A DNA stretch of 64,000 bases from positions 96,001 through 160,000 of the IMG/VR virus record IMGVR_UViG_3300045974_000166. The stretch is one strand, 5' to 3'. Of the stretch, positions 3,689 to 56,868 are shown in pieces. A program made the translations under genes and the position numbers. Each line of letters opens with the position of its first letter. Positions within the stretch are counted from its first letter, which is position 1. Source of the stretch: a virus. The notes beneath the pieces are model-generated. The model searched no databases. It saw only the letters and a list, made by a program, of their open reading frames with translations, and had not been told where the DNA came from.

Positions 3689-5934
3689 CAGATCAAATCG
3701 ACGAACTAAGCAACAACACTCTTCAATCTGTGGCAAAGAAACGTGCCGATCAGTCTAAAGAGGCAGGTGGTATTGGTGTGAATAATCCTACTCGTGCCAA
3801 GGCTATGGATCTTCTTCGGAAGTCCGATAATGCTAAGTATCGGCACACAGAACATCCATCTAAGGTAACTCCAAAGACTCCTGCTCCAGCACCTACCGAA
3901 GCCGATAAAGCAGCTCATGCTAAGGCAAACAAAGCCAAGGTAGATTCTCAGAACAACCGCGGCTATGGCGAAGGCCGATACATGGGTGATTCAGTAGAGC
4001 AGACGGAAGTTGAAGATCAGATTGACGAACTCTCAATGGACACAGTGAAGTCATACAAAGATAAGGTTAAAGCAAATCCTGCTCCATCTAAGACTACTCA
4101 CAACATTCTACACAAAGCTATTCGTAGATTTGCCGGTAAAGAACGTGCCGAAGATCGTATTCATTCAGATGAAATGAAGAAGATGCGTGAACGGCTAGGT
4201 CTGAAGAACGAAGAAGTTCTAGACGAAGATATTGGTTCTAGTATCAAGAAGGGTATCAAAAGCGTTAAACGCGGTTTTCAAGGTTGGGCAGATACAAGAA
4301 TGACACCCGGAAGTATTCAGAAAAGAACTAAAGAACTTACGGATGATGAATTGGCCGACCAAAGAGCTCAAAGAGATGAGCCAGGAAATACAGAACCCGG
4401 AAAACACTCACCTGTGGGTTTACAACGGCGACTACATGACAGAGAAAAAAGAAAACGTGATCTAGCTAATGAAGAAGTTATCACCGAAGGTGCTGGCATT
4501 GGTGATCTAGTCAAGTTCCACAAAATTGCCGGTATGAACGGTCATAGATATGCTCAAATATCTGGTTTCATTATGTCTAAGAAAGACGGTAACATTGATC
4601 CTATGACTGGCCGGGTTCATGGTACAGCTACTCACTATGTGGCTAAACTCAAGAAAGACCCACTGAACACAGTAAACTTCACCCCAGATGTTCATATCCC
4701 AGTTGGTGATGTGCATAAGGTAGATCAGTACGCCGAGATTCAGAACCACAAGGCCAAACAGAAGATGCTTGGCAAGATCAAGGGTGAGTCTATAGACGAA
4801 GAAGTTACATTCTCTGGCAAAGGTGCCAATGGTGTGCAATATAAAATCATCAAAACCGGTGATGATCATGCCATCCATGCAAACGGTAAACACATTGACA
4901 CCTACGGTTCTCACCAACGCGCTATGAGTGTTCTCAAGAATGAAGTTCCAGGTTTAAAAGCAGACCTAAAGGAAGAAGTTCTAGACGAAGATGCCGCTCA
5001 GAAGAATATGGGCCATGCAATGGATACTATTGAACCAAGCAAAAGAGATGCTGCTCGGAAACAATACGGAGCTGCCCGGTCTAAGGGTCTAACCCATGCA
5101 TCTTCTATTAGCCTAATGCACCAACGTTTTGGTGGCACAAATGAAGAAGTAGACGAAGCATTTGAAAAGCCAAAAGCCGCAAAGACTAAAGAAATTGAAA
5201 AGTCCGACAATGCTGCTCATGCTCGACTTAATAAGCCAATGCCAATTCAAAAACCAATACGAGTTGAAGAAGTAGAACAAATAGAAGAACTTTCTAATGA
5301 AACTCTTAAAAGTTACGTTAGCAAATCAAACAAGCATCGCACTCAAGCTTCGGTCGAACATCTAGGACAAGGTAAGTGGGATCCTAAGTTTGTTGATAAA
5401 ATGGATCGTAGAGCCGATCATTCCATAAAAGCTTATCATAAAATCAAGAATAAGCATTCAATGACTACCGAAGAAGTTGTAGATGAGGAAGTCAAAACAG
5501 AAAAGCCTAAGCACAAGGTTGGTGATACCGTTTGGGCAACTTCACCTACCAACAAAGCACTTACAATGACTGGCAAAGTTACAAAAATCGGTGTCACGCT
5601 AACTACCGTGAAGCATAAAGATGGTTCAGAAGCTCATTATCCACACAAACTTGTGAATAACGACTACGAAGTTCTACATCCAAATTCAAAGAAATGGCAA
5701 CGTGAACATCTAGAACAGACTGGGGAACTTCTCTCTTTGTCCGAAGTTAAATACATTCTAGAGAATGCAGCAGGAGGCGCTGGTGTCATTGCTCAACATT
5801 CCGGAGTAAATGACAGTGCTCCCCAAGGTACTGGCAGGGTTAAGAAAATGATGGGTAACAAAACTGATGCTGTAGCTATTGCTAAAATCATAGCAAATGG
5901 TGTAGCATCAAAAGAACAGAAAGAAAGTGAATAA
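3685..5934 (+). CDS. Large modular putative internal head (poly)protein
   Basis: 749 aa; repeated QIDELS/EEVLDE/EEVDE delimiters between basic modules. Confidence 0.6.
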   Translation: MTDQIDELSNNTLQSVAKKRADQSKEAGGIGVNNPTRAKAMDLLRKSDNAKYRHTEHPSKVTPKTPAPAPTEADKAAHAKANKAKVDSQNNRGYGEGRYMGDSVEQTEVEDQIDELSMDTVKSYKDKVKANPAPSKTTHNILHKAIRRFAGKERAEDRIHSDEMKKMRERLGLKNEEVLDEDIGSSIKKGIKSVKRGFQGWADTRMTPGSIQKRTKELTDDELADQRAQRDEPGNTEPGKHSPVGLQRRLHDREKRKRDLANEEVITEGAGIGDLVKFHKIAGMNGHRYAQISGFIMSKKDGNIDPMTGRVHGTATHYVAKLKKDPLNTVNFTPDVHIPVGDVHKVDQYAEIQNHKAKQKMLGKIKGESIDEEVTFSGKGANGVQYKIIKTGDDHAIHANGKHIDTYGSHQRAMSVLKNEVPGLKADLKEEVLDEDAAQKNMGHAMDTIEPSKRDAARKQYGAARSKGLTHASSISLMHQRFGGTNEEVDEAFEKPKAAKTKEIEKSDNAAHARLNKPMPIQKPIRVEEVEQIEELSNETLKSYVSKSNKHRTQASVEHLGQGKWDPKFVDKMDRRADHSIKAYHKIKNKHSMTTEEVVDEEVKTEKPKHKVGDTVWATSPTNKALTMTGKVTKIGVTLTTVKHKDGSEAHYPHKLVNNDYEVLHPNSKKWQREHLEQTGELLSLSEVKYILENAAGGAGVIAQHSGVNDSAPQGTGRVKKMMGNKTDAVAIAKIIANGVASKEQKESE

Positions 5935-5936: not shown

Positions 5937-6263
5937 ATGTCTTATATGAGAACCAAACCGCGGTGGTGTCCCACGGTTGAAGCAACTGAACAAGGTTGGA
6001 TAAATAGTCTAAATGGAGAGCTTTTAGTTTCTCTTCGCAATTTGAAATCATTATTAGCCTTAGAACAAGCCGCACTAGATGCTGCTGCAGCAACTATCCC
6101 AAAAGAGGTCCCTATGCAAGTAATTAAAGAAGAAGTAGTTCCAGTTGTCGCCGAAGTTCAAGTACCAGTTACTGAAGAAACTATCAAAAAGCCAAAGAAG
6201 AAACAAAAAATTCTTGGTGAAGTAGTTGAATTTCCTGTTGACGCACAAGTTATTGGTGAATAA
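5937..6263 (+). CDS. Hypothetical protein of T4-like phages
   Basis: P.W...A...GW....GELLVS motif; tightly packed in the operon. Confidence 0.6.
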   Translation: MSYMRTKPRWCPTVEATEQGWINSLNGELLVSLRNLKSLLALEQAALDAAAATIPKEVPMQVIKEEVVPVVAEVQVPVTEETIKKPKKKQKILGEVVEFPVDAQVIGE

Positions 6264-6655
6264 TGGCTGATACCAAAATCTCGGCTTTTACACCAGTTGT
6301 AACCCTTGGTCCAACCGATATATTTCCTATTGTACAAGGTGGCGTCAACAAATTTGCTACAATAGGGCAAATATCTAATCTAGCAGTTGCTGGTACCCAA
6401 GTTGTGACGACGTCGGCAGGAATTCCTGTAGCAGTTAGTTCAGATGTTGTGTTAGTTTCTTCGGCAGCCACACTAGGTTCTGGCACTGTTTCTGGAAAGA
6501 AATTAACAATTGTAGCTACTGGCCCCGGATCTATTGCATTTACTGCATCCTCAGTTCCAGTATTATATACTTATGCTGCCGGGTCTACTATGTCTTTAGT
6601 TTGGGCAAATTCTACTTGGAACATTCTGTCTATTTTTAATATGACACGTGTCTAA
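6263..6655 (+). CDS. Putative virion structural protein
   Basis: MADTKIS N-terminus and Thr/Ser/Val-rich beta composition; overlaps neighbouring stop/start codons. Confidence 0.5.
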   Translation: MADTKISAFTPVVTLGPTDIFPIVQGGVNKFATIGQISNLAVAGTQVVTTSAGIPVAVSSDVVLVSSAATLGSGTVSGKKLTIVATGPGSIAFTASSVPVLYTYAAGSTMSLVWANSTWNILSIFNMTRV

Positions 6656-6999
6656 TGATTCAAAACGACCAACATTTTTTGCTTCATGCATTTAAAGCGT
6701 ATGATAATCCTAGGATGATTTCTACTACCGAATTTGATGCAGATCTAAAAAGATTTGGTTACCTGAATACAATGCTTTCAAAGTATTCTAAAGATAAAGA
6801 TGAAGTTAAACTTAGAACATGTGTAAATCATATTGTTATAATTTCAAACTGTTTTTGTGAAGCATCTCTTGAACTCATAAGATATAAGATGCTTGAGGAA
6901 AACAGATCTATTACTGAGTCTATCATGTACTTTCTTAAAATGACGGATGACAAAGATTACGTGGATTTTAGCCTATTAAATACATTAGAACAACTATGA
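6655..6999 (+). CDS. Conserved hypothetical protein of T4-like phages
   Basis: F..A.K.YDNP.....EF..DLKRF.Y......NH.....N.F pattern seen upstream of tail sheath genes in T4-like phages. Confidence 0.65.
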   Translation: MIQNDQHFLLHAFKAYDNPRMISTTEFDADLKRFGYLNTMLSKYSKDKDEVKLRTCVNHIVIISNCFCEASLELIRYKMLEENRSITESIMYFLKMTDDKDYVDFSLLNTLEQL

Positions 7000-7166
7000 A
7001 CAACCAACAAGAATTAAAAGAAGATGGAGCAGTAGTAGCTCCCGGTAACGTTACTGCTGGAGTTGAAGGCCCAAAGCTTCCAATAAAACCAGCAAATGTC
7101 TTTAAGAGAGTTCAACTTCTTAAGAAGAAAAAAGATACGATCGAACCCAAAGTTCCATCTAATTAA
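6996..7166 (+). CDS. Small basic protein (56 aa), not in ORF track
   Basis: ATGA overlap; MNNQQELKEDGAVVAPGNVTAGVEGPKLPIKPANVFKRVQLLKKKK... Confidence 0.55.
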   Translation: MNNQQELKEDGAVVAPGNVTAGVEGPKLPIKPANVFKRVQLLKKKKDTIEPKVPSN

Positions 7167-7169
7167 ATA
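7162..7169 (+). promoter_or_regulatory. T4-type late promoter (ATTAAATA)
   Basis: Variant of TATAAATA about 30 nt upstream of gp18. Confidence 0.55.
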
Positions 7170-7200
7170 ATAAGTATAGAATTAAATCGGAGTATAAAAT

Positions 7201-8883
7201 ATGGCAATTTATCAACAATCCCCAGGTGTACAAGTAGTTGAAAAAGATGCTTCAGCCGTTACGGTTGGGCTATCTACCACTATCGGTGCATATGTAGGAT
7301 CATTCCAGTGGGGTCCTGTGTTGAACCCTATGTTAGTGTCCAATGAAGGTGACTTAGTCAAAATCTTTGGTACTCCAGATACTAATACATATTCACACTT
7401 CTTTTCGGCGGCAAACTTCTTGTCTTATACCAATGCAATGTGGGTAACACGAGTTGTTGGTGCATCGGCATCTAATGCTTCCGTTGCTGGTTCTGCACTG
7501 TTGATTTCTAACTTTGACAACTATCAAGCATCTTTTTCATCGGGTGTTAACACCTACGGTACATTTGCTGCTCGGTATCCTGGTTCTAAAGCAAATGGTC
7601 TGAAGGTTTCTATTGCTGACTCTGCAACATTTGCACAATGGCCTTATGCAAATCTATTCTCTGCAGCACCAGGCACCTCTGACTATGCCCTTTCTAAGGG
7701 TGGTTCAAACGATGAACTCCATGTTATCGTTATCGATGCTCTTGGTAAATTTACAGGTTCTCCTGGTGCAGTCTTGGAAAAATATGACTTCCTTTCTAAG
7801 GCTTCTGATGCCATTTCATACCAAGGAACAAACAACTACTATGTTTCGGTTCTAGCTAATCGTTCTTCATATGTCTATTGGATGTCTCATGACGTCGATG
7901 GTGCAAACTGGGGTGGCATTGCTACCAATACGGCATTTGCAGCATTATCTGGAGTTCCTACTGACTTTGTCTATACTCTTTCCGGTGGCGTAGATAATAA
8001 TGCCGTATCCGACGGCAACCTACAACTTGGTTGGGATCTATTCTTGGATTCTCAAACATATGATGTAAGCCTATTAGTGACTGGTAATGCTTCTGAAGCA
8101 CTTTCTGCCTACGTTGTCAACAACATTGCAGCTGTTCGTAAAGATTGTGTTGCATTTACTTCGATCTGCAAGACTGGTGCTCCAATTCTAGGTACATCTT
8201 CTACTCGCATTGCTGATGCTAAGGCATTTAAAACATTCGATTCTTCATATGCAGTAATCGATTCTGGTTACAAGTACATGTATGATAAGTACAATGACAA
8301 ATACCGTTGGATCGCTCTAAATGCCGATACCGCTGGTCTTTGCGCTAAAGTTGATGCAACAAACGACACATGGTCTTCTCCTGCCGGTATGACCAAGGGT
8401 CAGATCAAGGGTGCCGTGAAGCTTGCTTGGAACCCAACTCAAGCCGAACGTGATCAATTGTATCCAGCAGCTATTAATCCAGTTATCAACCAAGTTGGTA
8501 AGGGTACTATTCTATTTGGTGACAAGACTGCCACTACTAAGCCATCGGCATTTGATCGCATCAATGTACGCCGGTTATTCTTGATTCTTGAAAAATCGAT
8601 TGCCAACTCTGCTAAGTATCAACTGTTCGAACTTAATGATGCAATCACTCGGCTCCAATTTATTGCTTCGGTTGAACCATTCCTGCGCGATGTTAAAGGT
8701 CGACGCGGCGTGCAAGACTACAGAGTTATTTGTGATGAAACCAACAACACCCCACAAGTTGTTGCTACTAACAATTTTGTTGGTACTATCTTGATCAAGC
8801 CTAACTACTCGATCAACTTCATTACTCTGAACTTTACTGCTGTTGGTCCTAATGTTTCATTCGAAATTGCCGCAGGCGTTTAA
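7201..8883 (+). CDS. gp18: Tail sheath protein
   Basis: SPGVQVVEKD...F.WGP N-terminus; W.SPAG..KG, GDKT, FDRINVRRLF, FE.ND motifs. Confidence 0.97.
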   Translation: MAIYQQSPGVQVVEKDASAVTVGLSTTIGAYVGSFQWGPVLNPMLVSNEGDLVKIFGTPDTNTYSHFFSAANFLSYTNAMWVTRVVGASASNASVAGSALLISNFDNYQASFSSGVNTYGTFAARYPGSKANGLKVSIADSATFAQWPYANLFSAAPGTSDYALSKGGSNDELHVIVIDALGKFTGSPGAVLEKYDFLSKASDAISYQGTNNYYVSVLANRSSYVYWMSHDVDGANWGGIATNTAFAALSGVPTDFVYTLSGGVDNNAVSDGNLQLGWDLFLDSQTYDVSLLVTGNASEALSAYVVNNIAAVRKDCVAFTSICKTGAPILGTSSTRIADAKAFKTFDSSYAVIDSGYKYMYDKYNDKYRWIALNADTAGLCAKVDATNDTWSSPAGMTKGQIKGAVKLAWNPTQAERDQLYPAAINPVINQVGKGTILFGDKTATTKPSAFDRINVRRLFLILEKSIANSAKYQLFELNDAITRLQFIASVEPFLRDVKGRRGVQDYRVICDETNNTPQVVATNNFVGTILIKPNYSINFITLNFTAVGPNVSFEIAAGV

Positions 8884-8889
8884 TAAATA
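8882..8889 (+). promoter_or_regulatory. T4-type late promoter (AATAAATA)
   Basis: Directly upstream of gp19. Confidence 0.55.
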
Positions 8890-8910
8890 AGATAACTTAA
8901 GGAAATAAAC

Positions 8911-9456
8911 ATGGCACGTATCGATGATTTCAGAGCATTTTTAACACATGGTGGTGCTCGCCCTACGCAATTCAGAGTAAATCTGGCTTTCCCTCAGGCA
9001 ATTGGTGTACAACAAAATGGTGCCGGTATTTCTGGCGTCTTTATGTGTACGGCCACTTCGTTGCCTGCTTCGACACTCCAATCTATTGATGTACCTTACC
9101 GTGGCCGGACTGTGAAGTTGGCTGGCGAACGTGTATTCCAAAATTGGCAAGTTCGTGTGCTCAATGACTCAAATTTCTTAATCCGTAAAGCTATGGAATC
9201 TTGGTCTTCTAAGATTCTTGGCCACGAAAGCACTAGTGGAGTTGTTGTACCTACTCTATATGCAGTTGATATGGAAGTAGTTCAGCTTGACCGGAATGAT
9301 ATGGAACTTAGAAAATATAGATTCCATAATTGCTTCCCAACTAACATCTCTGAAATTTCTCTTGACTTTGGTCAAATCACTCAGATCGAAGAATTCTCTG
9401 TTGAATTCTCTGTTGATTACTGGACTGTAGATTCTGGCGACGTACAAATCTATTAA
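8911..9456 (+). CDS. gp19: Tail tube protein
   Basis: GGARPTQF.V, F.C.A..LPASTL..I.VPYRGR..K.AG.R.F..W...V.ND; follows gp18. Confidence 0.95.
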   Translation: MARIDDFRAFLTHGGARPTQFRVNLAFPQAIGVQQNGAGISGVFMCTATSLPASTLQSIDVPYRGRTVKLAGERVFQNWQVRVLNDSNFLIRKAMESWSSKILGHESTSGVVVPTLYAVDMEVVQLDRNDMELRKYRFHNCFPTNISEISLDFGQITQIEEFSVEFSVDYWTVDSGDVQIY

Positions 9457-9465
9457 GCTTGACAG

Positions 9466-11058
9466 ATGGCAAATAATAATGAATCGAATGGATTGAGTTT
9501 ATTTGGTTTCAACATCACTAAAAATAAAATCAAAGATGTTGAAACCAAATCTTTTGTTGCTGCAACAGATATAGAAGGTGGCATTGAAGTTGCAACCGGC
9601 TCTGGTGCTGGCTTTAATTCCTATTCAATTGATCTAGATCCTTCTGCAATAAAGAATGAGATTGAGCTAATTGGAAAATACCGTGAAATTTCTCTTGTTG
9701 CAGATATAGATCTTGCTGTATCTGAAATCATTGATGAATTCATGGTCATTGATGAAATCGAAGATCTTGTTACGATCGATTTCCAAGCAGAGTTCGACGA
9801 AAAGTATTCTAAGAAAACCAAAGAGGCAATTTCAGAAGAATTCAAGAATATTCTTGATCTGTTGAAGTTCCAACAAGTTGGTCCAGATATTGCACGGAAT
9901 TGGTACATCGATGGTAGATTAGCATACCACAAAATTGTAGACAAGGAAAAGTCCAAAGAAGGCATTAAAGAACTTCGGCCAATTGACGTTGCAAAACTTA
10001 AGCGTATTATTGAGATCAAAAAAGAAGTTGATCCAAAGTCTGGTATTTCTCTAGTTATAGGTCAGTCAGATTACTATATCTTTTCCGATATCCAGAAGAA
10101 TTCTACTACAGGTCTTCAGGGTGATCAGAAGCAAGGTATCAAGATTGCCCCAGAGTCTATTGCCTATATTACTTCTGGACTCATTGACAGAAATTCAAAT
10201 ATGTCGCTGTCTTATCTCCATAAGGCAATTCGACCACTGAACCAACTTCGTATGATGGAAGACTCAGATGTTATCTATCGTCTGACTCGTGCTCCACAAC
10301 GCCGTATTTTCTACATTGACACCTCTGGTATGGCTCGTACTAAGGCCGAACAGTACATCAAAGATGTCATGGCTCGGTACAAGAATAAGCAAGTGTATGA
10401 CGTCAACACCGGTACAGTTAAAGATGCAAAGAACCACCAGTCTATCTTAGAGGATTTCTTCCTTCCACGTACTACCGGTGGCAAGGGAACTGAAATTACT
10501 ACTTTGGATGGAGCTCCAAGTCTTGGTTCTATTGAGAATACTCAGTACTTCCAACAGAAGCTATATCAATCGTTGAACATTCCAATGACTCGCCTACAAC
10601 AAGGTCAGGGTTCATTCAACATTGGTCGGACGAATGAAATTACTCGCGATGAAATTAAGTTTGCGAAGTTCATTGCTAAACTTCGATTACGGTTTAACAA
10701 TCTATTCTTTGACTTGCTCAAGACCCAACTTCTGCTCAAGGGTATTGCCTCTGCTGAGGACTGGGCTCTTATCAAAGAAAATCTTCGGTTCCGTTATGCC
10801 AAGGATAACTTCTTTGCAGAACTCAAAGAATCTGACATGCTTCGTGAACGTCTACAGAATGTCCAGATTGCCGACATGTACACAGGCAAGTACTACTCTA
10901 AAGAATATGTCATGCGCTCTATGTTGAAGCTGACTGATGAAGAGATTGATGACATGGTAGAACAAATGGGCACAGAGAATGCAGCTGCGGCAAAATTAGC
11001 TGCTTCTCAACCTCAGCCCGATCAAAATGGTGCGGCCGCTGCACCACAGCAACAATAA
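9466..11058 (+). CDS. gp20: Portal vertex protein
   Basis: WYIDGR, SYLHKAI.P.NQLRMMED..VIYR..RAP.RRIFYID, EDFFLPR..GGKGTEITTL.G. Confidence 0.98.
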   Translation: MANNNESNGLSLFGFNITKNKIKDVETKSFVAATDIEGGIEVATGSGAGFNSYSIDLDPSAIKNEIELIGKYREISLVADIDLAVSEIIDEFMVIDEIEDLVTIDFQAEFDEKYSKKTKEAISEEFKNILDLLKFQQVGPDIARNWYIDGRLAYHKIVDKEKSKEGIKELRPIDVAKLKRIIEIKKEVDPKSGISLVIGQSDYYIFSDIQKNSTTGLQGDQKQGIKIAPESIAYITSGLIDRNSNMSLSYLHKAIRPLNQLRMMEDSDVIYRLTRAPQRRIFYIDTSGMARTKAEQYIKDVMARYKNKQVYDVNTGTVKDAKNHQSILEDFFLPRTTGGKGTEITTLDGAPSLGSIENTQYFQQKLYQSLNIPMTRLQQGQGSFNIGRTNEITRDEIKFAKFIAKLRLRFNNLFFDLLKTQLLLKGIASAEDWALIKENLRFRYAKDNFFAELKESDMLRERLQNVQIADMYTGKYYSKEYVMRSMLKLTDEEIDDMVEQMGTENAAAAKLAASQPQPDQNGAAAAPQQQ

Positions 11059-13539: not shown

Positions 13540-15266
13540 TGACTTTAACCGTTTTCAGTAAGTATACCAAGTATGCCTCTAGACAACTTGGTCAAGTACT
13601 GCCGAAGACTTTCCATTTTACTAAAAAGTCAATGATAGACGGAATGAATGCTCTGTCGCTTGATCTTAACTTTTTAAGTGGTATATTGGATCCGCGCATT
13701 ACATTTGCAAGAGCTGATCTAACAAGTTGTGCCACGTATTTTAACTCTGCTGGTCTACTTACGACAGCTGCTGCAAATATTCCTAGATTTGAATATAATC
13801 CGAATGTGCCAGCTGGCACATATACAACTGAATACGTGCCAAATGGTACATTTGCTAATGCTACGGATTGGGCCCTGGGTGCCGGCATTACTATTTCTGG
13901 TGGTACTCTAAATTTTACTGCCGTAGCTTCCGGTACACCGGCATCATCTGCAACTACTGCCGCCGCGGCCGGCATGCAATTGGGTCGGACATATAAATTA
14001 ACAGTTGATGCAACTATTACTTCTGGATCATACCATTTTTGGACTGCTGGTGCTGCGGCCCTAACATACGTAACTACTAATGGTACGATCACCGTATATT
14101 ATTTGTGTAGTAACCTGGCGCAACCAGTCATACAAGTTCAAGCCATGGCAGCAAATAGTACTGCCACTTTTGACAATATTTCTATTAAAGAAGTATATTT
14201 TACTCCACAGGGATTGTTGTTAGAGGAAGGTCGTACTAACTTACTTCTTCAATCTCGTGATTCTACTAATGTAGCATGGACTAAAGTAGATATAGCGGCT
14301 CCGGCACGAAATCAATTAGGTATTGATGGTGTAGCAAATACCGCTATGTATATTGCCGAAGGTGTTGCACTCACCGGAGCTCTAAGACAATCTGCTACTA
14401 TTGTTGCAGCATCTACAGTAACATTTAGCGCAATATTCAAACGTACTGGAGCCCAGGCCTGGTTTCGCATGCGCGTGTGGGATGGAACTACTGTCGGCGC
14501 AGATGCTTGGTTTGATATCCTGAATGGGGTAAAAGGTGCGGCAACTGCCTTGGGTACGGCAACCGTCGTATCAAGTAGAATTACCGCGCTTGGTAACGGA
14601 GCCTATAGATGCAGTGTTACCGCCACATTGACTGGTTCTGCTTTAACTACATGCCAGGTTGAAGTTTCTAGTGCTTTGGCTAATAGTAGTGCAGTTCGCG
14701 TAGCTAGTGCTAATTACTATATGGATTATGCGCAACTAGAGGTAGGTGGTTTTCCTACGGCTCCTATTGCAACTACAACGGCCGCGGTAGGTCGGGTCGA
14801 TGACAGCGCAATAATGTCGGGTGTAAACTTTACAAGTTGGTTTACCGGTGGATCTAACGGTACTATCTTTATGTCTCATACAATTGATCTGGGATTTAAT
14901 GCAAACCGGAACTATGGATGGGCAATTGATGATGGTGGATTAAATCGTCTTGCTTATAGAGCAGCTAATACAAGTGGCGGTATCGGTGTCTGTATTATTG
15001 GAAATGGTGTGTCGGTACCTGTGATAAATACCACGGCACCAACGCTGACGAGTATAAATAATGTAGCACTTACTTATACTTCGACAGATGCATCTGCAGC
15101 CGTAAATGGAGCAATTACTGGTACAATGGCTACAGGTTATGTTCCAATTGCCGAAACTCAGATAACTTTTGGTTCTATTGGTAATAATCTAAATGGTCAT
15201 ATCCGTAGATTTAGTTACTACACCGTTCGACTTACAGATTCTACTATCCAATCGTTAACATTGTAA
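13539..15266 (+). CDS. Head spike/fibre protein with ConA/LamG-like domains
   Basis: ITFARA..ATYFNSAG....AANIPRF, GLLLEEGRTNLLLQS, AQLEVG.FPT.PI.TT.AAV.R..D pattern typical of phage head-fibre proteins. Confidence 0.65.
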   Translation: MTLTVFSKYTKYASRQLGQVLPKTFHFTKKSMIDGMNALSLDLNFLSGILDPRITFARADLTSCATYFNSAGLLTTAAANIPRFEYNPNVPAGTYTTEYVPNGTFANATDWALGAGITISGGTLNFTAVASGTPASSATTAAAAGMQLGRTYKLTVDATITSGSYHFWTAGAAALTYVTTNGTITVYYLCSNLAQPVIQVQAMAANSTATFDNISIKEVYFTPQGLLLEEGRTNLLLQSRDSTNVAWTKVDIAAPARNQLGIDGVANTAMYIAEGVALTGALRQSATIVAASTVTFSAIFKRTGAQAWFRMRVWDGTTVGADAWFDILNGVKGAATALGTATVVSSRITALGNGAYRCSVTATLTGSALTTCQVEVSSALANSSAVRVASANYYMDYAQLEVGGFPTAPIATTTAAVGRVDDSAIMSGVNFTSWFTGGSNGTIFMSHTIDLGFNANRNYGWAIDDGGLNRLAYRAANTSGGIGVCIIGNGVSVPVINTTAPTLTSINNVALTYTSTDASAAVNGAITGTMATGYVPIAETQITFGSIGNNLNGHIRRFSYYTVRLTDSTIQSLTL

Positions 15267-15619: not shown

Positions 15620-16270
15620 ATGAAATTCCTCACAGAAGTATTAAATGATCCATTAAGTCTCTTGATGGAAGCTGGTGCCGATGGCAAAAAGAACTTGTAC
15701 ATTCAAGGTCCATTTGCCGTGGCCGAATCAAAGAATAAAAATGGTCGCATCTATAAGAAGGAAATTCTTGAAGCTGCTATCAACAAGTATGACACAGATT
15801 ATATCAAGAACGCCAAGGCACTAGGTGAGATGAATCACCCACCACGTCTGAATATTGACTACGAACGTGCCACCCACATGATCACAGAGATGAAACAAGA
15901 TGGTAACATCTGGATCGGTAAAGCTAAGGTGTTAAATACACCCATGGGCTCGATCCTGAAGGGTTTGCTTGAGTCTGGTGTGAATGTTGGTGTTTCTACT
16001 CGTGGTGCTGGTTCTATTACCGAAGCCAATGGTATTAAACATGTCGGTTCGGACTTTTTCCTAACTGCTGTTGATGCTGTATCTGATCCTTCCGGTCCAG
16101 GTTGCATAGTAAATGGTATCATGGAAGGCTATGAATATGATCTAGACTCAAAAGGTCAGGCGATCATCGAAGACATTGCAGCACGCGCCAAGAAAGATTA
16201 CGACAAGAAGGTACTTACGGAAGCACGTAAGATTGAGTTATTCAAACAGTTATTGGAAGCTATCAAATGA
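15620..16270 (+). CDS. gp21: Prohead core protease
   Basis: LYIQGPF..AE.KNKNGRIY, ALGEMNHP, GKAKVLNTPMG, GVSTRG.GS, DAV.DPS.P; start re-assigned to ATG 15620. Confidence 0.97.
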   Translation: MKFLTEVLNDPLSLLMEAGADGKKNLYIQGPFAVAESKNKNGRIYKKEILEAAINKYDTDYIKNAKALGEMNHPPRLNIDYERATHMITEMKQDGNIWIGKAKVLNTPMGSILKGLLESGVNVGVSTRGAGSITEANGIKHVGSDFFLTAVDAVSDPSGPGCIVNGIMEGYEYDLDSKGQAIIEDIAARAKKDYDKKVLTEARKIELFKQLLEAIK

Positions 16271-25927: not shown

Positions 25928-26383
25928 ATGACTTGGATTTATGAAAACGAGCCGGTGACTGAGGTAGACCCAAAGTACATCGGCTTTATATATAGAATTA
26001 CGAATTTGATAGATGGCCGCATGTACATAGGTAAGAAAAAATCTACGTTCAAAAAGACATCTATCAAAACTGTAAAATTGAAGAATGGCGAAAAGAGAAA
26101 GAAAAAAATTCGATCTTTAGTTCCATCTGACTGGGATACCTATTATGGATCTTCGGAAGAATTAAAGAAAGATGTAGAAACTCTTGGTAAAGAAAATTTC
26201 AAACGAGAAATTACCAGGTGGTGTCGTACACTAACAGAGCTGACATATTTCGAAGCCCGAGAGCAGTTTGTTAGTGATTGTCTTTTATATCCAGATAAAT
26301 TCTATAATGCTTGGATTTCATGCAGAACTCGCAGAGATCATTTACTAAAATACGCACAAAATGAAAGTTGTATTAAAATCTAA
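25928..26383 (+). CDS. GIY-YIG family endonuclease-like protein
   Basis: GFIYRITNLIDGRMYIGKK...W..YYGSS..L..D....G...F.REI. Confidence 0.85.
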   Translation: MTWIYENEPVTEVDPKYIGFIYRITNLIDGRMYIGKKKSTFKKTSIKTVKLKNGEKRKKKIRSLVPSDWDTYYGSSEELKKDVETLGKENFKREITRWCRTLTELTYFEAREQFVSDCLLYPDKFYNAWISCRTRRDHLLKYAQNESCIKI

Positions 26384-27221: not shown

Positions 27222-27403
27222 ATTACACTCTAGAGGTAAAAGAAGCAGAAAACGGAGAACTGTATATTGAGTTTCCGTCTGAGATGATGGAAGCGCTTGG
27301 CTGGGCAGCAGGTGACACTTTGAATTTTGCCGTACAAGATGATGGTTCTATAATCATTAAAAATTGTACATGCAATTTTCTGCGTGATATAATTAAATCT
27401 TAG
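27218..27403 (+). CDS. AbrB/MazE-like DNA-binding domain protein
   Basis: GELYIEFP.EMMEALGW..GDTL.F....DG.III. Confidence 0.7.
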   Translation: MNYTLEVKEAENGELYIEFPSEMMEALGWAAGDTLNFAVQDDGSIIIKNCTCNFLRDIIKS

Positions 27404-27437
27404 ATGAAAACAGTTATTGAAATTTAAATCTTCAACC

Positions 27438-27445
27438 ATTAAATA
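27438..27445 (+). promoter_or_regulatory. T4-type late promoter upstream of the radical SAM gene
   Basis: ATTAAATA, same variant as in front of gp18 and ORF 15286. Confidence 0.5.
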
Positions 27446-27465
27446 GATAAAAGAAAGTTACCAGC

Positions 27466-28527
27466 ATGATAGAAATCCCAAACGGTTTTAGTAGAGAACA
27501 AATTGCCGCGGCCATATCACCTCGGCATCTTCATTTAACACTATTGCCAACGGAGAAATGTAATTTTCGTTGTACATATTGTTATGAAACGTTCGAAAAT
27601 GGCCGGATGAGTGAAGACGTCGTACAAGGTGTAAAATCTTTAATTGAACATCGAGCTAAGGACGGCCTTGATCTATTATCAATATCGTGGTTCGGTGGGG
27701 AACCACTTTTAGCACCAACTGTTGTTTTAGATATTATTACACGCGTCAGAGAACTCAAGGAAAAATATAACTTTGCAGTCAAGGGTGGCTTTACCACAAA
27801 TGGTTACTTACTTACTAAACAACTAGCAACCGAGTTAATTCGACTAGATCAATGGTTTTTTCAAATATCACTTGATGGTTGGGAAACCACACATGATCAA
27901 ACTAGAGTATTGGTTAATGGTAACGGCACATTTGATACCATTTTTAAGAATTTAGTTGCAATGAAGGACATTAAACAAGATTTTAATGTGCAATTACGTC
28001 TTCATCAAACTACTCAAAATGAAGAATCTATGGAGAAGTTAGGGCGAGAATTATATAAAGTTTTTAATGGAGATGATAGATTTACGTATGATATTCAGGA
28101 CGTTCGTGACTTGGGCGGGGACAAAGGAAAGAATATTGAAAAGTTACCAAAAAATTATTTTGAAATTAGAAGAGATAAATTGATTGCCATACTTTTCCCA
28201 GAGAATTTAAGAAATTCTGTAGACAAACACCACGAAGAAATAAAGGGAAATCCAGTATCATATATTTGTTATGCATCAAAACCGAATCATTTTTTGATTA
28301 GGTCAACGGGAAGAATTGGTAAATGTACTGTTGCATTAGAGGATGAACGGAATGATATAGGCGAACTTCATATAGATGGATCAATGACATTCGATAACGA
28401 TTTGCTAATGCAATGGTCGAAGGGCTTTAATACATTTGATCAAAAGAATCTTGCGTGTCCAGCCTGGAAGGTTGAGATGCCAAAAACGAGCAAACGCATT
28501 ATTCCAATTGGCGTAGCTACAACCTAG
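27466..28527 (+). CDS. Radical SAM peptide maturase with a Twitch/SPASM-like C-terminal domain
   Basis: CNFRCTYC (CX3CX2C), WFGGEPLL, TTNGYLL, QISLDG; C-terminal CYASKPN...GRIGKC...ACP cysteines. Confidence 0.9.
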   Translation: MIEIPNGFSREQIAAAISPRHLHLTLLPTEKCNFRCTYCYETFENGRMSEDVVQGVKSLIEHRAKDGLDLLSISWFGGEPLLAPTVVLDIITRVRELKEKYNFAVKGGFTTNGYLLTKQLATELIRLDQWFFQISLDGWETTHDQTRVLVNGNGTFDTIFKNLVAMKDIKQDFNVQLRLHQTTQNEESMEKLGRELYKVFNGDDRFTYDIQDVRDLGGDKGKNIEKLPKNYFEIRRDKLIAILFPENLRNSVDKHHEEIKGNPVSYICYASKPNHFLIRSTGRIGKCTVALEDERNDIGELHIDGSMTFDNDLLMQWSKGFNTFDQKNLACPAWKVEMPKTSKRIIPIGVATT

Positions 28528-28566
28528 GTTGTAATAATTTAAATTGGCTTTTAAAGGAAAATAGAA

Positions 28567-28785
28567 ATGAAATTCTCAGTAAATAAATTCGGTAAAACTA
28601 TGTTGAATGACGAAATGCTTTCGTCGATTGAAGCTAATGTGTCATTGGCCACGGCCGGTGGCCAGACTACCACCAATTCTAAGAATTGCAGTAGTTCAAC
28701 AAATGAAGTGTGTAGAAACACCGGTGATTGTACTAACGCCAATAATACACTTGTTTGTACTGGCACCAAAGTACTCCCTCAGTAA
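28567..28785 (+). CDS. RiPP precursor peptide (GG leader plus Asn/Cys-rich core)
   Basis: 72 aa, strong RBS (AAGGAA); leader ends ...L.DEML...ATAGG; core QTTTNSKNCSSSTNEVCRNTGDCTNANNTLVCTGTKVLPQ. Confidence 0.8.
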   Translation: MKFSVNKFGKTMLNDEMLSSIEANVSLATAGGQTTTNSKNCSSSTNEVCRNTGDCTNANNTLVCTGTKVLPQ

Positions 28786-28816
28786 GTAGTAATTATTTAA
28801 AATAGTCTAGTTTAGA

Positions 28817-28844
28817 TTTTAGGGGAAACTAGTTTCCCCTAAAA
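28817..28844. terminator. Perfect 28-bp palindrome between precursor and transporter genes
   Basis: TTTTAGGGGAAACT-AGTTTCCCCTAAAA. Confidence 0.7.
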
Positions 28845-28852
28845 AGTATATT

Positions 28853-30976
28853 TTGAAATATAATTATGAGAACTTAATGTCTTTATCATTTGTCTTTGAT
28901 CATAAAAATAAATGGCCCAGTGTAAAAAGGCCATTCGTCCCATTACAAACAAATCAGGCAGAGTGTGGTGTAGTTGCCGCAACAGCACTTGCTTGGATGT
29001 ACGGTGTACGTGTTAGTTACTCTGCTCTTTTAAATGTTGCCGGTGGAGCAACTCGGGGTCTTACATTAAGTCAAGTAAGAAGTTTACTTCGTCGAACTGG
29101 ATTTCAATGTGAAGTATATACAAGTGATCCAGAAACAATAGCAAATCAGTCGGGTTGCTCAATAGTACTCAAAAAGACAGGACATTTTTTGACTTTGGGC
29201 CCGCTTACCAGATGGGGTACACGAGAAGTTTTTGACCCAGCATTCGGCTGGTCTAAAATTGGTGTGAAAGATCTTGCAGAAGCCATTGAACCATATTCAA
29301 TAGAAATACTGCCAATACAGTCGGGATGTAAACTTCCGTTGCACCCAAAATTCCCATGGAAGGAATTTTTGAAAGAAGTAATTAGTCAGCGAATGTTGAT
29401 TAAGACATTGCCGATTTTATTTGTTGCTCAATTAGTTGCCGTATTATTTCCTTTGCTATCTGCAAAGGCATTTGATTCTCAGTTCAATGCACCAACGCCT
29501 GGCCTACAATTAGCAGTATATATTGCTCTGGTAAGTGGCCTTGTTGGTACCGGAATTTCTTTAGTTGGTGGTTGGTTTAAATCTCAACTTAAAGCAGATT
29601 TGGTGGGTAGGTCAATCAATGACGCCGTCAAAAAAGTTTTTAATATAAAGTTATCATTTCTGAGAAATAAATCAACAAATTCGCTAATTGGACTAGTCAA
29701 TTCTGTGGAGACAATAACACAAGAGATTCTGAACATTGTATCCGACTCTGCGGTAACTCTTATATTAGCTTTAGCGGCCTTTGTGATGCTTATGAAGGCT
29801 TCACCGATAATAGGTTTAATGTCATTTGGTTTAATTTGCTTAAGATGGTTAATAGATGTTTCAACCTATAAACAAATGGAACGGCTGGGAGAAAAGCATT
29901 TTAAGAACAGTGTCAGAAGTAAGCTTATGGTTTCTGATATGCTCCGTGCTATTATCCCAATGAGAATTGGTGGTACACAGATGCAAGCAGCACAACTTAT
30001 AAATGTACAAACCAACCATCTGGTAGAATCAGAGTATGAACTCGACAAATACAAACAGAATATTAATTCCATAATAAGTGTTTTCACAGTCATTGATAGG
30101 TTGGTATTAATGTTGGTAGGTGCCGAACTTGTCCGTCAAAATCTCATAACGCTTGGAACACTAATTTCGTTGTCAATTTATCGTGAAATGGTAAATTCCG
30201 GGGTTGGAGCAATTTCCTCTCTCTATAGTTCGACACATATAGCAGCTGCATATTCTCTTTCTCTGGCTGATGTGTATAAAGAACAAGAGAACACAATAAT
30301 TATTCATAGATTACCCGAAGATGGAAGTCTTAAGATTGATAACATTGATCTTTCATATTCTGAGTTGTCTGAACCTGTTCTCGTTGGTTTATCTTTGGAT
30401 ATTAAAAGCGGAGAAAATGTAGTTATAACGGGCCCTAGTGGTGCCGGGAAATCAACACTTTTAAAAGCAATTGCTGGACAACTCATACCAACATGTGGCA
30501 CAATCAAATTTGGTGGTATTGAATCATCAGAAGACACAATACATTGCATTACGAAATATATTGGATTCGTAATGCAAGATGATAAATTGATCCCAGCCAC
30601 AGTTGGTGAAAATATTAGACTATATAGAAAAGTTGATGACTCTGATCTAATTACTGCAGCTAAAGCAGCTGAACTCCACGATTTTATAATGTCCCTTCCG
30701 ATGCGATATGAAACCCCGATTTCCGAAGATGAATCTTCGTTTTCTGGTGGTCAAAGACAGCGTATTCTGCTAGCAAGAGCTTTATATGGAAGTCCTCTTG
30801 CCTTGATTTTAGATGAAGCAACAAGCTTTTTAGATACTGAAACTGCACAAGCCGTCTCAAAAAATCTAAAATCTATGGGAATAACCCGCATACATTTTGC
30901 CCACAGAATGGAATCGATTGAAGCAGCTGACCGTGTTATTGACATTAGGACATGCTCGATGCCCACTCTTTATTAA
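28853..30976 (+). CDS. Peptidase-containing ABC transporter (C39 peptidase + TMD + NBD)
   Basis: QTNQAECG catalytic Cys, TGHF His, TM helices, GPSGAGKST, FSGGQRQR, ILDEATS, FAHR; alternative start ATG 28877. Confidence 0.95.
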   Translation: MKYNYENLMSLSFVFDHKNKWPSVKRPFVPLQTNQAECGVVAATALAWMYGVRVSYSALLNVAGGATRGLTLSQVRSLLRRTGFQCEVYTSDPETIANQSGCSIVLKKTGHFLTLGPLTRWGTREVFDPAFGWSKIGVKDLAEAIEPYSIEILPIQSGCKLPLHPKFPWKEFLKEVISQRMLIKTLPILFVAQLVAVLFPLLSAKAFDSQFNAPTPGLQLAVYIALVSGLVGTGISLVGGWFKSQLKADLVGRSINDAVKKVFNIKLSFLRNKSTNSLIGLVNSVETITQEILNIVSDSAVTLILALAAFVMLMKASPIIGLMSFGLICLRWLIDVSTYKQMERLGEKHFKNSVRSKLMVSDMLRAIIPMRIGGTQMQAAQLINVQTNHLVESEYELDKYKQNINSIISVFTVIDRLVLMLVGAELVRQNLITLGTLISLSIYREMVNSGVGAISSLYSSTHIAAAYSLSLADVYKEQENTIIIHRLPEDGSLKIDNIDLSYSELSEPVLVGLSLDIKSGENVVITGPSGAGKSTLLKAIAGQLIPTCGTIKFGGIESSEDTIHCITKYIGFVMQDDKLIPATVGENIRLYRKVDDSDLITAAKAAELHDFIMSLPMRYETPISEDESSFSGGQRQRILLARALYGSPLALILDEATSFLDTETAQAVSKNLKSMGITRIHFAHRMESIEAADRVIDIRTCSMPTLY

Positions 30977-30977
30977 A

Positions 30978-31006
30978 TTTACACATATTGTTTGATGTGA
31001 TATAAT
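30978..31006 (+). promoter_or_regulatory. Phage early promoter
   Basis: aaTTTACAcata...17nt...TATAAT. Confidence 0.8.
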
Positions 31007-31011
31007 GAACT

Positions 31012-33204
31012 ATGTTCCAGAATACTAAATGTAATATGTTTAAAAAGACTTTGGTCAGTTTATCAAGTATTTTTTTCTTAAACAGCTTTTCACATGCACA
31101 GACAGATACGAACCAGCCCAAATCATTGGTGCTGCAACAATCTTCAGTGCCAAGCGACTGGGTTCACTCCTCAGAACTAGTGCCGTTGAATGCACTTCAC
31201 TCGGATCTCAAATATGAAATTGCTTCCGCGGCTTCATCAACAATTGTTCCAAGTAAGTACATAACCCGAGTCTCAACATTTCATGATCGCAATGCTTTGT
31301 ATGTTGAAATCAACGCGATAGACCCAACCCCAGATAAGATCATTGCTGCTAACGGAGTTCATGACACCGTAACAGTGGGTGATAAGGTTCAGTTATTTGT
31401 AGACCCATTGGGTACTGGTCGTAGGGCATATGTCTTTACTGTATCTGCCTCTGGTTCAACCGGTGATCAGATCATTAGTTCTGTTGGGGAAGCTTCCCCA
31501 AATTGGAATGGTCAATGGGAATCTAGTACAAAACGTACTAGTACCGGATATACGGTAAGGTATCGCATACCATTTCAAACAATAGAAGTTCAAGAAAACT
31601 CAAAAGACATAGCAATAAATGTTAATCGTTCCATAGGATATGGCCAGCGTGAAGTATTAAGTTGGGCTCCAGTTGACGTCCATCTTTCATGTGAGGTGTG
31701 TCAGTTTGAACATTTTAAACTTGATGATTTACAAGCACAAGAATCACAATTGCTATTGTCACCATATATTGTATCACGATATATTCAACAAACTGGTAAA
31801 AGTACTACTAAAGAAACTTACACAGGTTTAGATATGCAATGGTCAAAAAATGGGAACAAAATCATTGGAACAATTCGACCAGACTATTTGCAACTAGATT
31901 TTGATTCATTTCAAATTACAACCAATAGAAGATATGCAATTAATCTCACGGAAAATAGACCATTTTTCACACAAGACAGAGGCCCTTTTAACACAGAGAT
32001 GAGTTTAATTTATACCCGAGCAATTACTGATTTAGATTGGGGCGTTCAATATGTCGGCCGACAAGCTGATCAGACTTTTGGAGTCATAGTTGCCAAAGAC
32101 CGCTATACAAATATTGTTCGGCCGGAGATACTTGGGTCAAGTCTATCTTCACAAGAAAGTGGATCCACCAATGCTATCGTAAGTTATGGACTTCAACTGA
32201 ACGACAAACTAAGACTTGGGACATTGGCAACAGTGCGTTTTGGTGATAATTATCAAAACACTATGATATCTGGTTCACTCGGTTGGAGTCCTTCGGCCGA
32301 AAATTCATTCACAGTTGTAACAGCTTATTCGCAGACCCGCGATCCAATACAGGCAACTGTTCCTAATGGTAGCGCATTTTATTTGAATCATACTTATTCT
32401 GATAAGACTCTTTTTTCACAGTCTAGCATTACATACGTCGCCGAAAATTTCAGAGCTGACATGGGATATATGAATTTGGCTGGGGGAACCAGATTTTCAA
32501 ATTACGAAAGTTTGAACTTCGACCAGTCAGAAAATGACTTTATTACATCATATGGTGGTTATGTCACTTTTGATACGACTATAGATGCAGACAATAATCT
32601 AGTGAGTTATGACCAGACTTTGTCTGCATCTATAACTATGAAATCCCAGTATATATTTTCTATCAGTAAGCAAAAGAACATGTATATATTCGACACAAAG
32701 CGATTTTTGTCCGACCAAACAACTATCAATTTTGATGCAACACCATTTAACTGCTTCACTATTATGTCATCTTTCGGCCGTGGCACAACAACCGATTTCA
32801 ATGTTCTAGAACAGCGTCCACTTAGTAGTATGATGTTTACAACGGTGTGGCAAATTACATCACAGTGGAAAACTTCTACATCTATTATAAATGAAAAAGA
32901 CGCCGATTCAAACGATCTTGGATATAAAGCTAGGGTTGTCAATGTCAAACTGTCATATTCTCCCTCAAAATTCCACACTCTGAAATTACAATTGGCGCAG
33001 TCTAGTACTTTACAGAAAGATCTATTTGATGGGATTCTGTATGAACAACATTCAGTAAGTCAAAAAGAACAAATTGTTTACACATGGAATCCGCAAATAG
33101 GCACAACTTTAGTGCTTGGTTGGCAAGGTAATAGAACCAAGACTGATGGTAAGATTTCGACTCAAACAACTGCAGTCTTTGGTAAGTTTGTAAAAGTATT
33201 TTAA
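31012..33204 (+). CDS. Outer-membrane protein: signal peptide + CBM9/DOMON-like domain + beta-barrel (DUF5916-like)
   Basis: MFKKTLVSL...SHA signal peptide; D.V..F.DP.GTGRRAY.F, W.G.W.S...R...GY.V...IPF, E.RPFF; alternating beta strands; terminal Phe. Confidence 0.75.
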   Translation: MFQNTKCNMFKKTLVSLSSIFFLNSFSHAQTDTNQPKSLVLQQSSVPSDWVHSSELVPLNALHSDLKYEIASAASSTIVPSKYITRVSTFHDRNALYVEINAIDPTPDKIIAANGVHDTVTVGDKVQLFVDPLGTGRRAYVFTVSASGSTGDQIISSVGEASPNWNGQWESSTKRTSTGYTVRYRIPFQTIEVQENSKDIAINVNRSIGYGQREVLSWAPVDVHLSCEVCQFEHFKLDDLQAQESQLLLSPYIVSRYIQQTGKSTTKETYTGLDMQWSKNGNKIIGTIRPDYLQLDFDSFQITTNRRYAINLTENRPFFTQDRGPFNTEMSLIYTRAITDLDWGVQYVGRQADQTFGVIVAKDRYTNIVRPEILGSSLSSQESGSTNAIVSYGLQLNDKLRLGTLATVRFGDNYQNTMISGSLGWSPSAENSFTVVTAYSQTRDPIQATVPNGSAFYLNHTYSDKTLFSQSSITYVAENFRADMGYMNLAGGTRFSNYESLNFDQSENDFITSYGGYVTFDTTIDADNNLVSYDQTLSASITMKSQYIFSISKQKNMYIFDTKRFLSDQTTINFDATPFNCFTIMSSFGRGTTTDFNVLEQRPLSSMMFTTVWQITSQWKTSTSIINEKDADSNDLGYKARVVNVKLSYSPSKFHTLKLQLAQSSTLQKDLFDGILYEQHSVSQKEQIVYTWNPQIGTTLVLGWQGNRTKTDGKISTQTTAVFGKFVKVF

Positions 33205-33233
33205 TTTACACATAATACTCGGTGGTTTATAAT
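33205..33233 (+). promoter_or_regulatory. Phage early promoter
   Basis: TTTACA-cataatactcggtggtt-TATAAT. Confidence 0.85.
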
Positions 33234-56055: not shown

Positions 56056-56150
56056 GAACTCGTAGTGATGGAATTGGTAGACATAGGGCCCTTTCCGGGT
56101 CCTGCCGTAAAAAGCGTACAGGTTCGAGTCCTGTCTACAATGAGTTCGCA
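56056..56150 (+). ncRNA. tRNA-like RNA: Leu/Ser-type body, TTC anticodon, bulged 10-bp acceptor, no CCA
   Basis: D arm ATGGAATTGGTAGACAT, long variable arm, T arm ACAGG-TTCGAGT-CCTGT. Confidence 0.5.
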
Positions 56151-56539
56151 TTTTAAAGTATTCTGCAACGGCCGATTGTGGTCAAATAGACGAAGAGCGT
56201 ATAAGGTTGGTACCAACCTAAATCCCAGTAGGTTTATGAAGTAGAATGCTTTAAAATGATTTCAATCCACAATCCTCGCTCATCTGGGGATTACAATATG
56301 GGAATTAACCCTAAATGCGATGAGGCATTGACATCCTGTAAGGGTGTATAGCTTGAATTAACAGGGTGGATCGAAATGATTTTATAGTTGAAGGCATTGC
56401 ACTATCTGAGAAACACATCAGTAGGGTTGCTCCTACACCGGTGTGAAAAGTCGGAATTCGTTCTTCGCAGAGTTCAATAACCGTATTGGGACGAAGGTAA
56501 AGTGTTTTGAACAGTGCCTTCAACTATAAATAGAAATAT

Positions 56540-56615
56540 GGGCTGGTAGTGATACTGGGGTACACGAGGCACTTGCAATGCTTAGATTGGAGTTCGATCC
56601 TCCACCGGTCCACCA
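56540..56615 (+). tRNA. tRNA-Ala(TGC)
   Basis: Cloverleaf, G3:U70, CCA. Confidence 0.9.
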
Positions 56616-56622
56616 AAAATTT

Positions 56623-56694
56623 GCGGGTTGTTTGTGGAATACGTTTAGCCTTCCAAGCTGAAAGATGCAGGTTCGAACCCTGTAGCCCGCTCCA
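56623..56694 (+). tRNA. tRNA-Gly(TCC)
   Basis: Acceptor GCGGGTT, loop CTTCCAA, T arm, TCCA end; weak D arm. Confidence 0.8.
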
Positions 56695-56703
56695 CTTTAA
56701 TGA

Positions 56704-56780
56704 GTCCCAGTAGCCGAATAGGTATAGGCAGCTGTCTTAAAAGCAGTAATCTGTGGGTTCGAGTCCCACTTGGGACACCA
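56704..56780 (+). tRNA. tRNA-Leu(TAA), short variable loop
   Basis: Loop CTTAAAA, T arm, ACCA. Confidence 0.8.
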
Positions 56781-56787
56781 AGAATAA

Positions 56788-56863: not shown

Positions 56864-56868
56864 AGTTA

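Follow-up and report, generated by a model that had tools for sequence, protein, structure and literature searches.

A candidate multi-ring Cys-Asn thioether peptide and its radical SAM cassette in a T4-like phage

What does a T4-like phage make from a 72-residue peptide with four N-x(2-3)-C motifs that is encoded between a radical SAM (rSAM) maturase and a C39 ABC exporter? The window, the whole stretch of 64,000 nucleotides that was analysed, comprises bases 96,001-160,000 of a virus record that is 192,097 bp long and has a completeness rating of 100% (IMGVR_UViG_3300045974_000166). Sequence comparison and analogy with characterised enzymes make it rather probable that the peptide is a RiPP precursor, stapled into four Cys-Asn thioether rings by the adjacent rSAM enzyme and then cut and exported by the neighbouring transporter (PCAT). 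The precursor and rSAM type that forms Asn-Cys thioethers is already known; its phage carrier is unusual.

The cassette and its phage carrier

The features of the cassette, in window coordinates, are as follows.

27371..33202, + strand: insertion of 5.8 kb with exactly four cassette genes, delimited by blastn colinearity with the sister phage L300
27466..28527, + strand: radical SAM peptide maturase, 353 aa, matched in Pfam by Radical_SAM and Fer4_12 only
28567-28785, + strand: candidate RiPP precursor ORF, 72 codons (72 aa), with four N-x(2-3)-C motifs
28567..28662, + strand: predicted leader peptide, residues 1-32, ending in the double glycine G31-G32 preceded by A30
28663..28785, + strand: predicted core peptide, residues 33-72 plus stop, with N37/C41, N46/C49, N51/C55 and N60/C64
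28817..28844, + strand: terminator-like hairpin between precursor and PCAT, 12-bp perfect stem with a T-rich tail
28853..30976, + strand: PCAT, 707 aa, with C39 domain, transmembrane domain and ATPase (Pfam Peptidase_C39 at residues 31-143, ABC_membrane, ABC_tran)
31012..33204, + strand: 730-aa protein with a CBM9-like N-terminal domain (Pfam CBM9_1), homologous to the DUF5916 proteins encoded last in bacterial cassettes

An earlier reading made from the letters of the window (the sequence-only reading) had given the ORF, the G31-G32 site and the numbering of Cys and Asn exactly as they appear in the translation of 28567-28785. A ribosome-binding site, AGGA, lies about 9 nt 5' of the ORF. The core contains one N-x2-C unit and three N-x3-C units. 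Cys41, 49, 55 and 64 are accompanied by Asn37 (−4), Asn46 (−3), Asn51 (−4) and Asn60 (−4), respectively, and the spacings between successive Cys are 8, 6 and 9.

The C39 domain of PCAT retains the Q...ECG, GHF and FDP motifs in its translation. The protein scored 247 bits against the NCBIfam model NHLM_micro_ABC1, which is below the cut-off, and its translation may in fact begin slightly 3' of the listed TTG, at an ATG within a few codons. A leader ending in A-G-G beside a PCAT with an intact C39 domain fits the predicted export of a double-glycine-leader peptide, and on these features cleavage after G32 and export of the peptide are likely. The phage genome as a whole lacks a gene for an HlyD-type adaptor. 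The 730-aa protein was 27-33% identical (177-249 bits) to the DUF5916 genes of three bacterial-type cassettes (L002, L005 and L247) and is a putative outer-membrane partner. The Pfam DUF5916 model had no match in the phage genome, the homology being visible only by tblastn to the cassette proteins, and DUF5916 was not mentioned in the literature searched.

The hairpin folded at −19.8 kcal/mol (z = −3.9), and none of 200 shuffled sequences folded as well; it is possibly an attenuator or an RNA-stabilising stem. Near-identical promoter-like sites (AATTTACACATA ... TATAATGAA; TTTACA-17-TATAAT, 11/12 matches) were located at 30978-31006, before the fourth gene and inside the cassette, and at 33205-33233, just past the insertion. 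The same element recurs in L300 at about 14262-14300 and 16037-16094, so one copy was apparently recruited or duplicated inside the cassette.

The carrier is a T4-like myovirus. In its major capsid protein it shares 61% identity with Synechococcus phage BUCT-ZZ01 and about 51% with marine cyanomyoviruses. The cassette is preceded by genes for a gp41-type helicase, a primase, ribonucleotide reductase (RNR), a homing endonuclease, a transglycosylase and an AbrB-like protein, and is followed by small phage ORFs. No integrase or lysogeny genes were found in the genome, which holds a single rSAM gene and a single precursor gene. A fibre-tip Asn-Cys ladder reading was ruled out, as the genome contains no (NC)n ORF.

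Colinearity with L300, the closest relative (RNR 93% identical in amino acid sequence), halts at window position ~27370 (L300 14269) and resumes at 33203 (L300 14262). Since these positions adjoin each other in L300, the cassette is a 5.8-kb insertion of exactly four genes. Neither the rSAM gene nor the precursor, PCAT or fourth gene was present in 77 phage loci related through RNR. In four close relatives among them (RNR 88-93% identical), the genes for RNR, homing endonuclease, transglycosylase and AbrB-like protein are followed by the genes that come after the cassette in the window. In a quick tree the phage maturase had a long terminal branch and fell inside a clade of bacterial enzymes with 97% local support; the sequence most like it was 48% identical. 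We conclude that this T4-like phage acquired the whole cassette horizontally, as an insertion. The GC content of the cassette (0.36-0.38) differs little from that of the phage (0.41), which together with the phage-type promoter-like site inside it suggests that the cassette has adapted to the phage.

The cassette had no megablast match among 50,697 phage records, in which tblastn of the rSAM enzyme retrieved only relatives of at most 31.5% identity, and a pattern scan of viral contigs with rSAM found nothing. A related cargo was present in a 66-kb IMG/VR contig (L089, positions 5998-10492), where a P2-like temperate phage carries an rSAM enzyme 42% identical to that of the window, two NxxC-type precursors, and two MacB/FtsX-type permeases instead of PCAT. 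That cassette lies between the CI repressor and gpD, and the contig also has a Toprim primase. The remark in the sequence-only reading that such a scaffold was not recognised as described from phages therefore holds for the literature searched, but not for the databases, where relatives of the cassette occur in temperate-phage contigs such as L089. In a further viral contig (L090, 5977-6963), an rSAM gene whose product is 42% identical directly adjoins terminase, portal and Mu-F genes, with an LXG/EndoU toxin gene and an AbiC-like gene nearby; no N-x-C precursor was seen adjoining that rSAM gene.

Complete RiPP or bacteriocin clusters are likewise carried as phage cargo by prophage SP-beta (sublancin) and by other phages with bacteriocin clusters, and a survey of phage-borne biosynthetic clusters counted 64 in temperate and 5 in lytic phages (bioRxiv 10.1101/2020.10.01.322628). 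Such phage-borne clusters are almost always on temperate phages, whereas the present carrier is a T4-like myovirus in which no integrase was found.

Some further observations were made on the carrier and its relatives. The homing endonuclease gene after RNR (window 25928-26383) is of GIY-YIG type and 71-93% identical in sister phages; the label of its best PHROGs family, 'NAD synthetase', looks like a mislabel. The RNR match in L301, L310, L314 and L319 spans ~3.0-3.1 kb instead of 2.2 kb, being split over ~0.8 kb more, which suggests an intron, intein or inserted homing element in the gene. A 5.8-kb block at window 56059-61834 holds 24 tRNA genes, all on the + strand.

The precursor family and its Asn-Cys spacing

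Taken alone, the N-x(2-3)-C motif of the window peptide is in no excess over chance (P ~0.2). When the 40-aa core was shuffled, Asn occurred at −3 or −4 of all four Cys in 0.6% of trials, but 20% of shuffles did as well once any residue at any adjacent pair of offsets, before or after all four Cys, was admitted. This high rate arises because 18% of the core is Asn. A chance motif could thus not be rejected from the window peptide by itself; it was ruled out by the homologues.

The sequence-only reading had staked its proposal on the conservation of Asn, which could be followed in precursors gathered beside rSAM homologues. Nine precursors were chosen purely by gene position, so that the count is not circular, and 42 of their 47 Cys had Asn at −3 or −4. 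Shuffled sequences gave 13.5 +/- 2.9, and none of 20,000 shuffles reached 42. An alignment of 15 precursor sequences showed no variation at G9, N37, C41, C49 and N51, and hardly any at N46 and C55. Conservation of Asn thus equals that of Cys, and the sequence-only reading passed the refuting condition that it had set itself.

Searches with single sequences were too weak, so a full HMM search was needed to recover the family: a word-based search with the precursor alone returned only itself, and one with the precursor alignment only 11 proteins. A profile search with the 15-sequence alignment against 1.84 billion cluster representatives yielded 527 proteins at E <= 1e-3, of which 123 reached E <= 1e-10, and the window peptide matched the family profile with an E value of 1.2e-13. 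Among 158 family representatives, 815 of 885 Cys (92%) had Asn at −3 or −4, against 27 +/- 1.5% in shuffled sequences, a figure that is partly circular because the retrieving profile already rewards Asn and Cys. Of the Cys in the family, 52% had Asn at −3 and 44% had Asn at −4.

The units follow a spacing grammar. From one Cys to the next the distance is 5, 6, 8 or 9 residues; distances of 5 and 8 pair with Asn at −3, and those of 6 and 9 with Asn at −4. Asn therefore stands 2 or 5 residues past the previous Cys, with 2 or 3 residues before the next. The window peptide complies with this rule: its Asn offsets of −3, −4 and −4 belong to spacings of 8, 6 and 9, respectively. The core had been described as two tandem units in the sequence-only reading, and its spacing does pair as N-x3-C-x4-N-x2/3-C, but it is better read as four units of the family-wide grammar. 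Members contain 4-8 Cys, mostly 5-7. Few members (5 of 159) have as few as the four units of the window peptide. The number of Cys is odd in 101 of 159 members, so an all-disulfide design was judged unlikely.

The leader consensus of the family is ...L-D-x-x-G-R-V-V-L-S-D-x-x-L-x-x-L-E...A-G-G. Its motif G-x3-L-x-D-x2-L was present in 145 of 159 members, the window version being GKTMLNDEML...AGG. By these sequence criteria the window peptide belongs to a large family of multi-(N-x2-3-C) precursors, which is characterised by this leader, by a core of [ST]-N-x(2-3)-C units and by a neighbouring rSAM enzyme of one clade that lacks an RRE. Pfam and NCBIfam contain no family for these precursors. 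A literature search that left most subscription journals outside its reach found no paper on the family or its enzyme clade.

Precursors in a Streptomyces locus (L012, 3653-3904) and a Thermoplasmata archaeon (L019, 3855-3977) lie beside rSAM relatives 38-39% identical. Their leaders are similar (L-D-D-A-G-R-I-V-L and I-D-N-Y-G-V-I-K), and their cores are of the Cys/Gly type with little or no Asn, which indicates that the leader family is broader than the N-x-C core. In L247, a second, uncalled precursor-like ORF (5619-5819) follows the annotated precursor and matched the window peptide in tblastn with an E value of 3e-5.

The radical SAM enzyme and its bacterial relatives

The maturase has exactly six Cys, namely the CX3CX2C triad C32/C36/C39 and C268, C287 and C331. 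All six were invariant in 23 homologues, in the pattern C268-x13-G282-x4-C287 ... C331. Three Cys beyond the triad are enough for one auxiliary cluster (Twitch-like) and too few for the two of a SPASM domain, and Pfam found no SPASM match. The enzyme fits the Twitch-type pattern (triad, C-x(9-15)-G-x4-C and one further Cys), from which an auxiliary cluster is predicted. The triad begins after only 31 residues, which leaves no space for an RRE.

No curated NCBIfam model was reached at its cut-off, and the bacterial homologues fell equally short. The best model was TIGR04463 (127 bits, cut-off 525). Of the curated ranthisynthase models, the PapB model NF047865 gave 115 bits (cut-off 340) and covered the N-terminal half only (residues 24-192), the SCIFF model TIGR03974 gave 64 bits (cut-off 425), and NxxcB was not among the 25 best models. 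An AlphaFold (AF2) model of the maturase had a pLDDT of 84 and a pTM of 0.84. The nearest solved folds were CteB (5why/5wgg), then anSME, ChlB and SkfB; Foldseek comparison with the CteB and anSME structures gave E ~1e-11 and TM 0.56-0.60, and these two were also the only notable PDB sequence matches (E 1e-12, identity ~20%).

More than 4,600 relatives of the maturase were found in a collection of 5.8 billion proteins, the best of them 44-49% identical over the full length. Named relatives come from Luteimonas, Massilia, Thalassomonas, Sphingomonas, Usitatibacter and Acidobacteriota; in a class-wide genome search, 2 of 400 genomes matched. The DNA around seven relatives was fetched. One or two small genes lay directly 3' of the enzyme gene in all seven loci, a C39 ABC transporter was nearby in all seven, and a DUF5916/CBM9 protein homologous to the fourth gene of the window was encoded in three. 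Several of the bacterial cassettes are on mobile DNA, beside TniB/TniQ or with an integrase and MobA. Some cassettes without DUF5916 encode in a comparable place a 300-370-aa protein of no known family (L248 5564-6472; L250 1883-2986; L006 8775-9752). At least two of these proteins have an N-terminal hydrophobic segment, and they could serve in immunity or as a substitute partner.

The peptide is encoded between an rSAM maturase and a C39 ABC exporter, and the comparison across loci upheld the sequence-only reading. All nine loci whose enzyme scored at least 280 bits against the window maturase (at least 44% identity) adjoin a small ORF with at least three N-x2/3-C units; about seven of them are independent, since three are near-identical copies of one cassette. 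Such neighbours were present in 8 of 23 loci at 220-280 bits and fell to the background level, defined by distant ORFs of the same loci, below 220 bits. The results indicate that the substrate type tracks the similarity of the enzyme to the window maturase.

Proposed pathway and competing readings

In the proposed pathway, the conserved 32-residue leader would guide the precursor to the adjacent rSAM enzyme, a role suggested by its belonging to a conserved family. The enzyme would take a hydrogen from a carbon of each Asn and link this carbon to the Cys sulfur 3-4 residues further on, while the single auxiliary Fe-S cluster holds that Cys. The product would carry four separate, non-overlapping small thioether rings, N37-C41, N46-C49, N51-C55 and N60-C64. 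The C39 domain of PCAT would then cut after G32 and export the 40-residue product, and the CBM9/DUF5916-like protein may act at the outer membrane. One Asn per Cys, the fixed gap of 2-3 residues, the odd Cys counts and a fold like that of thioether synthases with one auxiliary site fit this scheme.

The closest precedent is NxxcA/NxxcB of Streptococcus orisratti, from the NxxC subfamily of streptococcal RaS-RiPPs, in which Asn likewise stands three residues upstream of Cys and the rSAM gene adjoins the precursor gene. The literature agrees with the sequence-only reading that NxxcB forms an Asn-Cys beta-thioether on an NxxC motif: Asn C-beta becomes bonded to the sulfur of a Cys that follows three residues later, with the Cys presumably held on an auxiliary cluster (PMC9389541, PMC8326336). 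The reaction predicted here is like that of NxxcB in joining an Asn carbon to a Cys sulfur while an auxiliary Fe-S cluster holds the Cys (PMC9389541). The differences are considerable. NxxcA has the single bridge Cys23-Asn20 (PMC8326336), whereas the window family has 4-8 units in which N-x2-C and N-x3-C alternate. NxxcB has a SPASM domain with two auxiliary clusters, and the streptococcal NxxC clusters are beside shp/rgg quorum-sensing genes (PMC11851443); the window maturase has three C-terminal Cys, no SPASM match and no RRE, and its cassette is flanked by phage genes. The window family, unlike the streptococcal clusters, is accompanied by a PCAT and a putative outer-membrane protein, and is found in Proteobacteria-type cassettes as well as in a phage. 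As the enzyme is without SPASM and RRE, the analogy to NxxcB rests on the substrate motif and the general fold, not on orthology. The system would work like NxxcA/NxxcB but is outside that subfamily, as neither the single bridge nor the SPASM domain nor the shp/rgg neighbours that define the streptococcal clusters apply to it.

Other characterised systems share parts of the arrangement. In PapA/PapB of Paenibacillus polymyxa, one enzyme likewise forms many small non-overlapping beta-thioether rings on a repeat core to give the ranthipeptide freyrasin, but its motif is C-x3-D, with Cys upstream of the Asp acceptor (PMC9413430, PMC8326336), whereas in the window Asn is upstream of Cys. CteA/CteB (SCIFF, thermocellin) and anSME represent thioether-forming or Cys-modifying rSAM enzymes with C-terminal Fe-S domains, and are the nearest structures to the maturase. 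CteB and anSME differ from it in having full SPASM domains, CteB also in having an RRE, and CteB makes a Cys-Thr gamma link. QmpA/QmpB (suisactin) likewise form a crosslink between Cys sulfur and Asn (PMC11851443); QmpB is of the streptococcal SPASM type and makes an alpha-carbon link, and QmpA is without a repeat core of the window family's grammar.

The position of the bond on Asn is where the nearest alternative arises. By the precedent of NxxcB the link would be at C-beta, while a C-alpha link remains as the alternative. The same rings with sulfur bonded to the alpha-carbon would make the product a non-hairpin sactipeptide instead of a ranthipeptide, in which an rSAM enzyme joins Cys sulfur to a beta or gamma carbon. 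We regard this as unlikely, given that the sole characterised N-x-x-C motif with Asn upstream of Cys yields the beta link (PMC9389541). On the other side, QmpB joins Asn C-alpha to Cys sulfur (PMC11851443), GggB and QmpB, both non-hairpin sactisynthases, are similar to ranthisynthases when compared over the full length and at the catalytic site (PMC10288494), and all of the motif evidence fits both links alike, so that sequence cannot separate them.

A different chemistry altogether, such as epimerisation, Cys oxidation or a link to Thr or Ser at −5 or +1, with Asn serving only for recognition or turn geometry, is doubtful enough that we give it little weight. Thr or Ser is enriched around the Cys of the family (48% at −5 and 37% at +1), the enzyme matches no characterised family above cut-off, and its fold neighbours include the Cys oxidase anSME and the epimerase EpeE. 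However, Asn at −3 or −4 (~90%) is far more conserved than any other neighbour of Cys, under the spacing rule the position of each Asn goes with the Cys that comes next, and one Cys-Asn unit per Cys is what a crosslink per unit predicts. It is very improbable that the peptide leaves the cell without modification or with no more than disulfides, or that the phage copy is a decaying, unexpressed passenger. The even number of Cys in the window peptide (four) and the dispensability of the cassette, which is missing from sister phages, would suit such a reading. Against it, most family members have 5 or 7 Cys, the phage has kept intact all residues that are invariant in the enzyme, the motif of the leader and those of the C39 and ABC domains, the GC content of the cassette is near that of the phage, and a phage-type promoter-like site lies within it. 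Four Cys-Asn thioether rings therefore remain our preferred reading.

With low confidence, the product may be assigned the role of an extracellular antagonist or signal. In its widest form the proposal is tentative: a virulent T4-like phage might make, staple and export a four-ring Cys-Asn thioether peptide in the course of infection, as a weapon or signal outside the cell, and the cassette might then be the first handle on a large RiPP class in which a Twitch-only, RRE-less rSAM enzyme reads a conserved leader and closes 4-8 rings by a strict N-x2/3-C grammar.

If the chemistry holds, the single-ring Asn-Cys thioether of streptococci would extend to hundreds of multi-ring peptides, mainly in Proteobacteria-type cassettes, and a much smaller enzyme, needing neither a SPASM domain nor an RRE, would suffice to form it. 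Such an enzyme would help in understanding how leaders are recognised and would be useful as a compact tool for stapling peptides. Few phages carry biosynthetic clusters, and nearly all that do are temperate; here a complete set of maturase, precursor, exporter and putative outer-membrane protein is present in an integrase-less T4-like genome. The sister phages without the insertion provide a natural with/without pair for the effect of a secreted modified peptide on a lytic virus.
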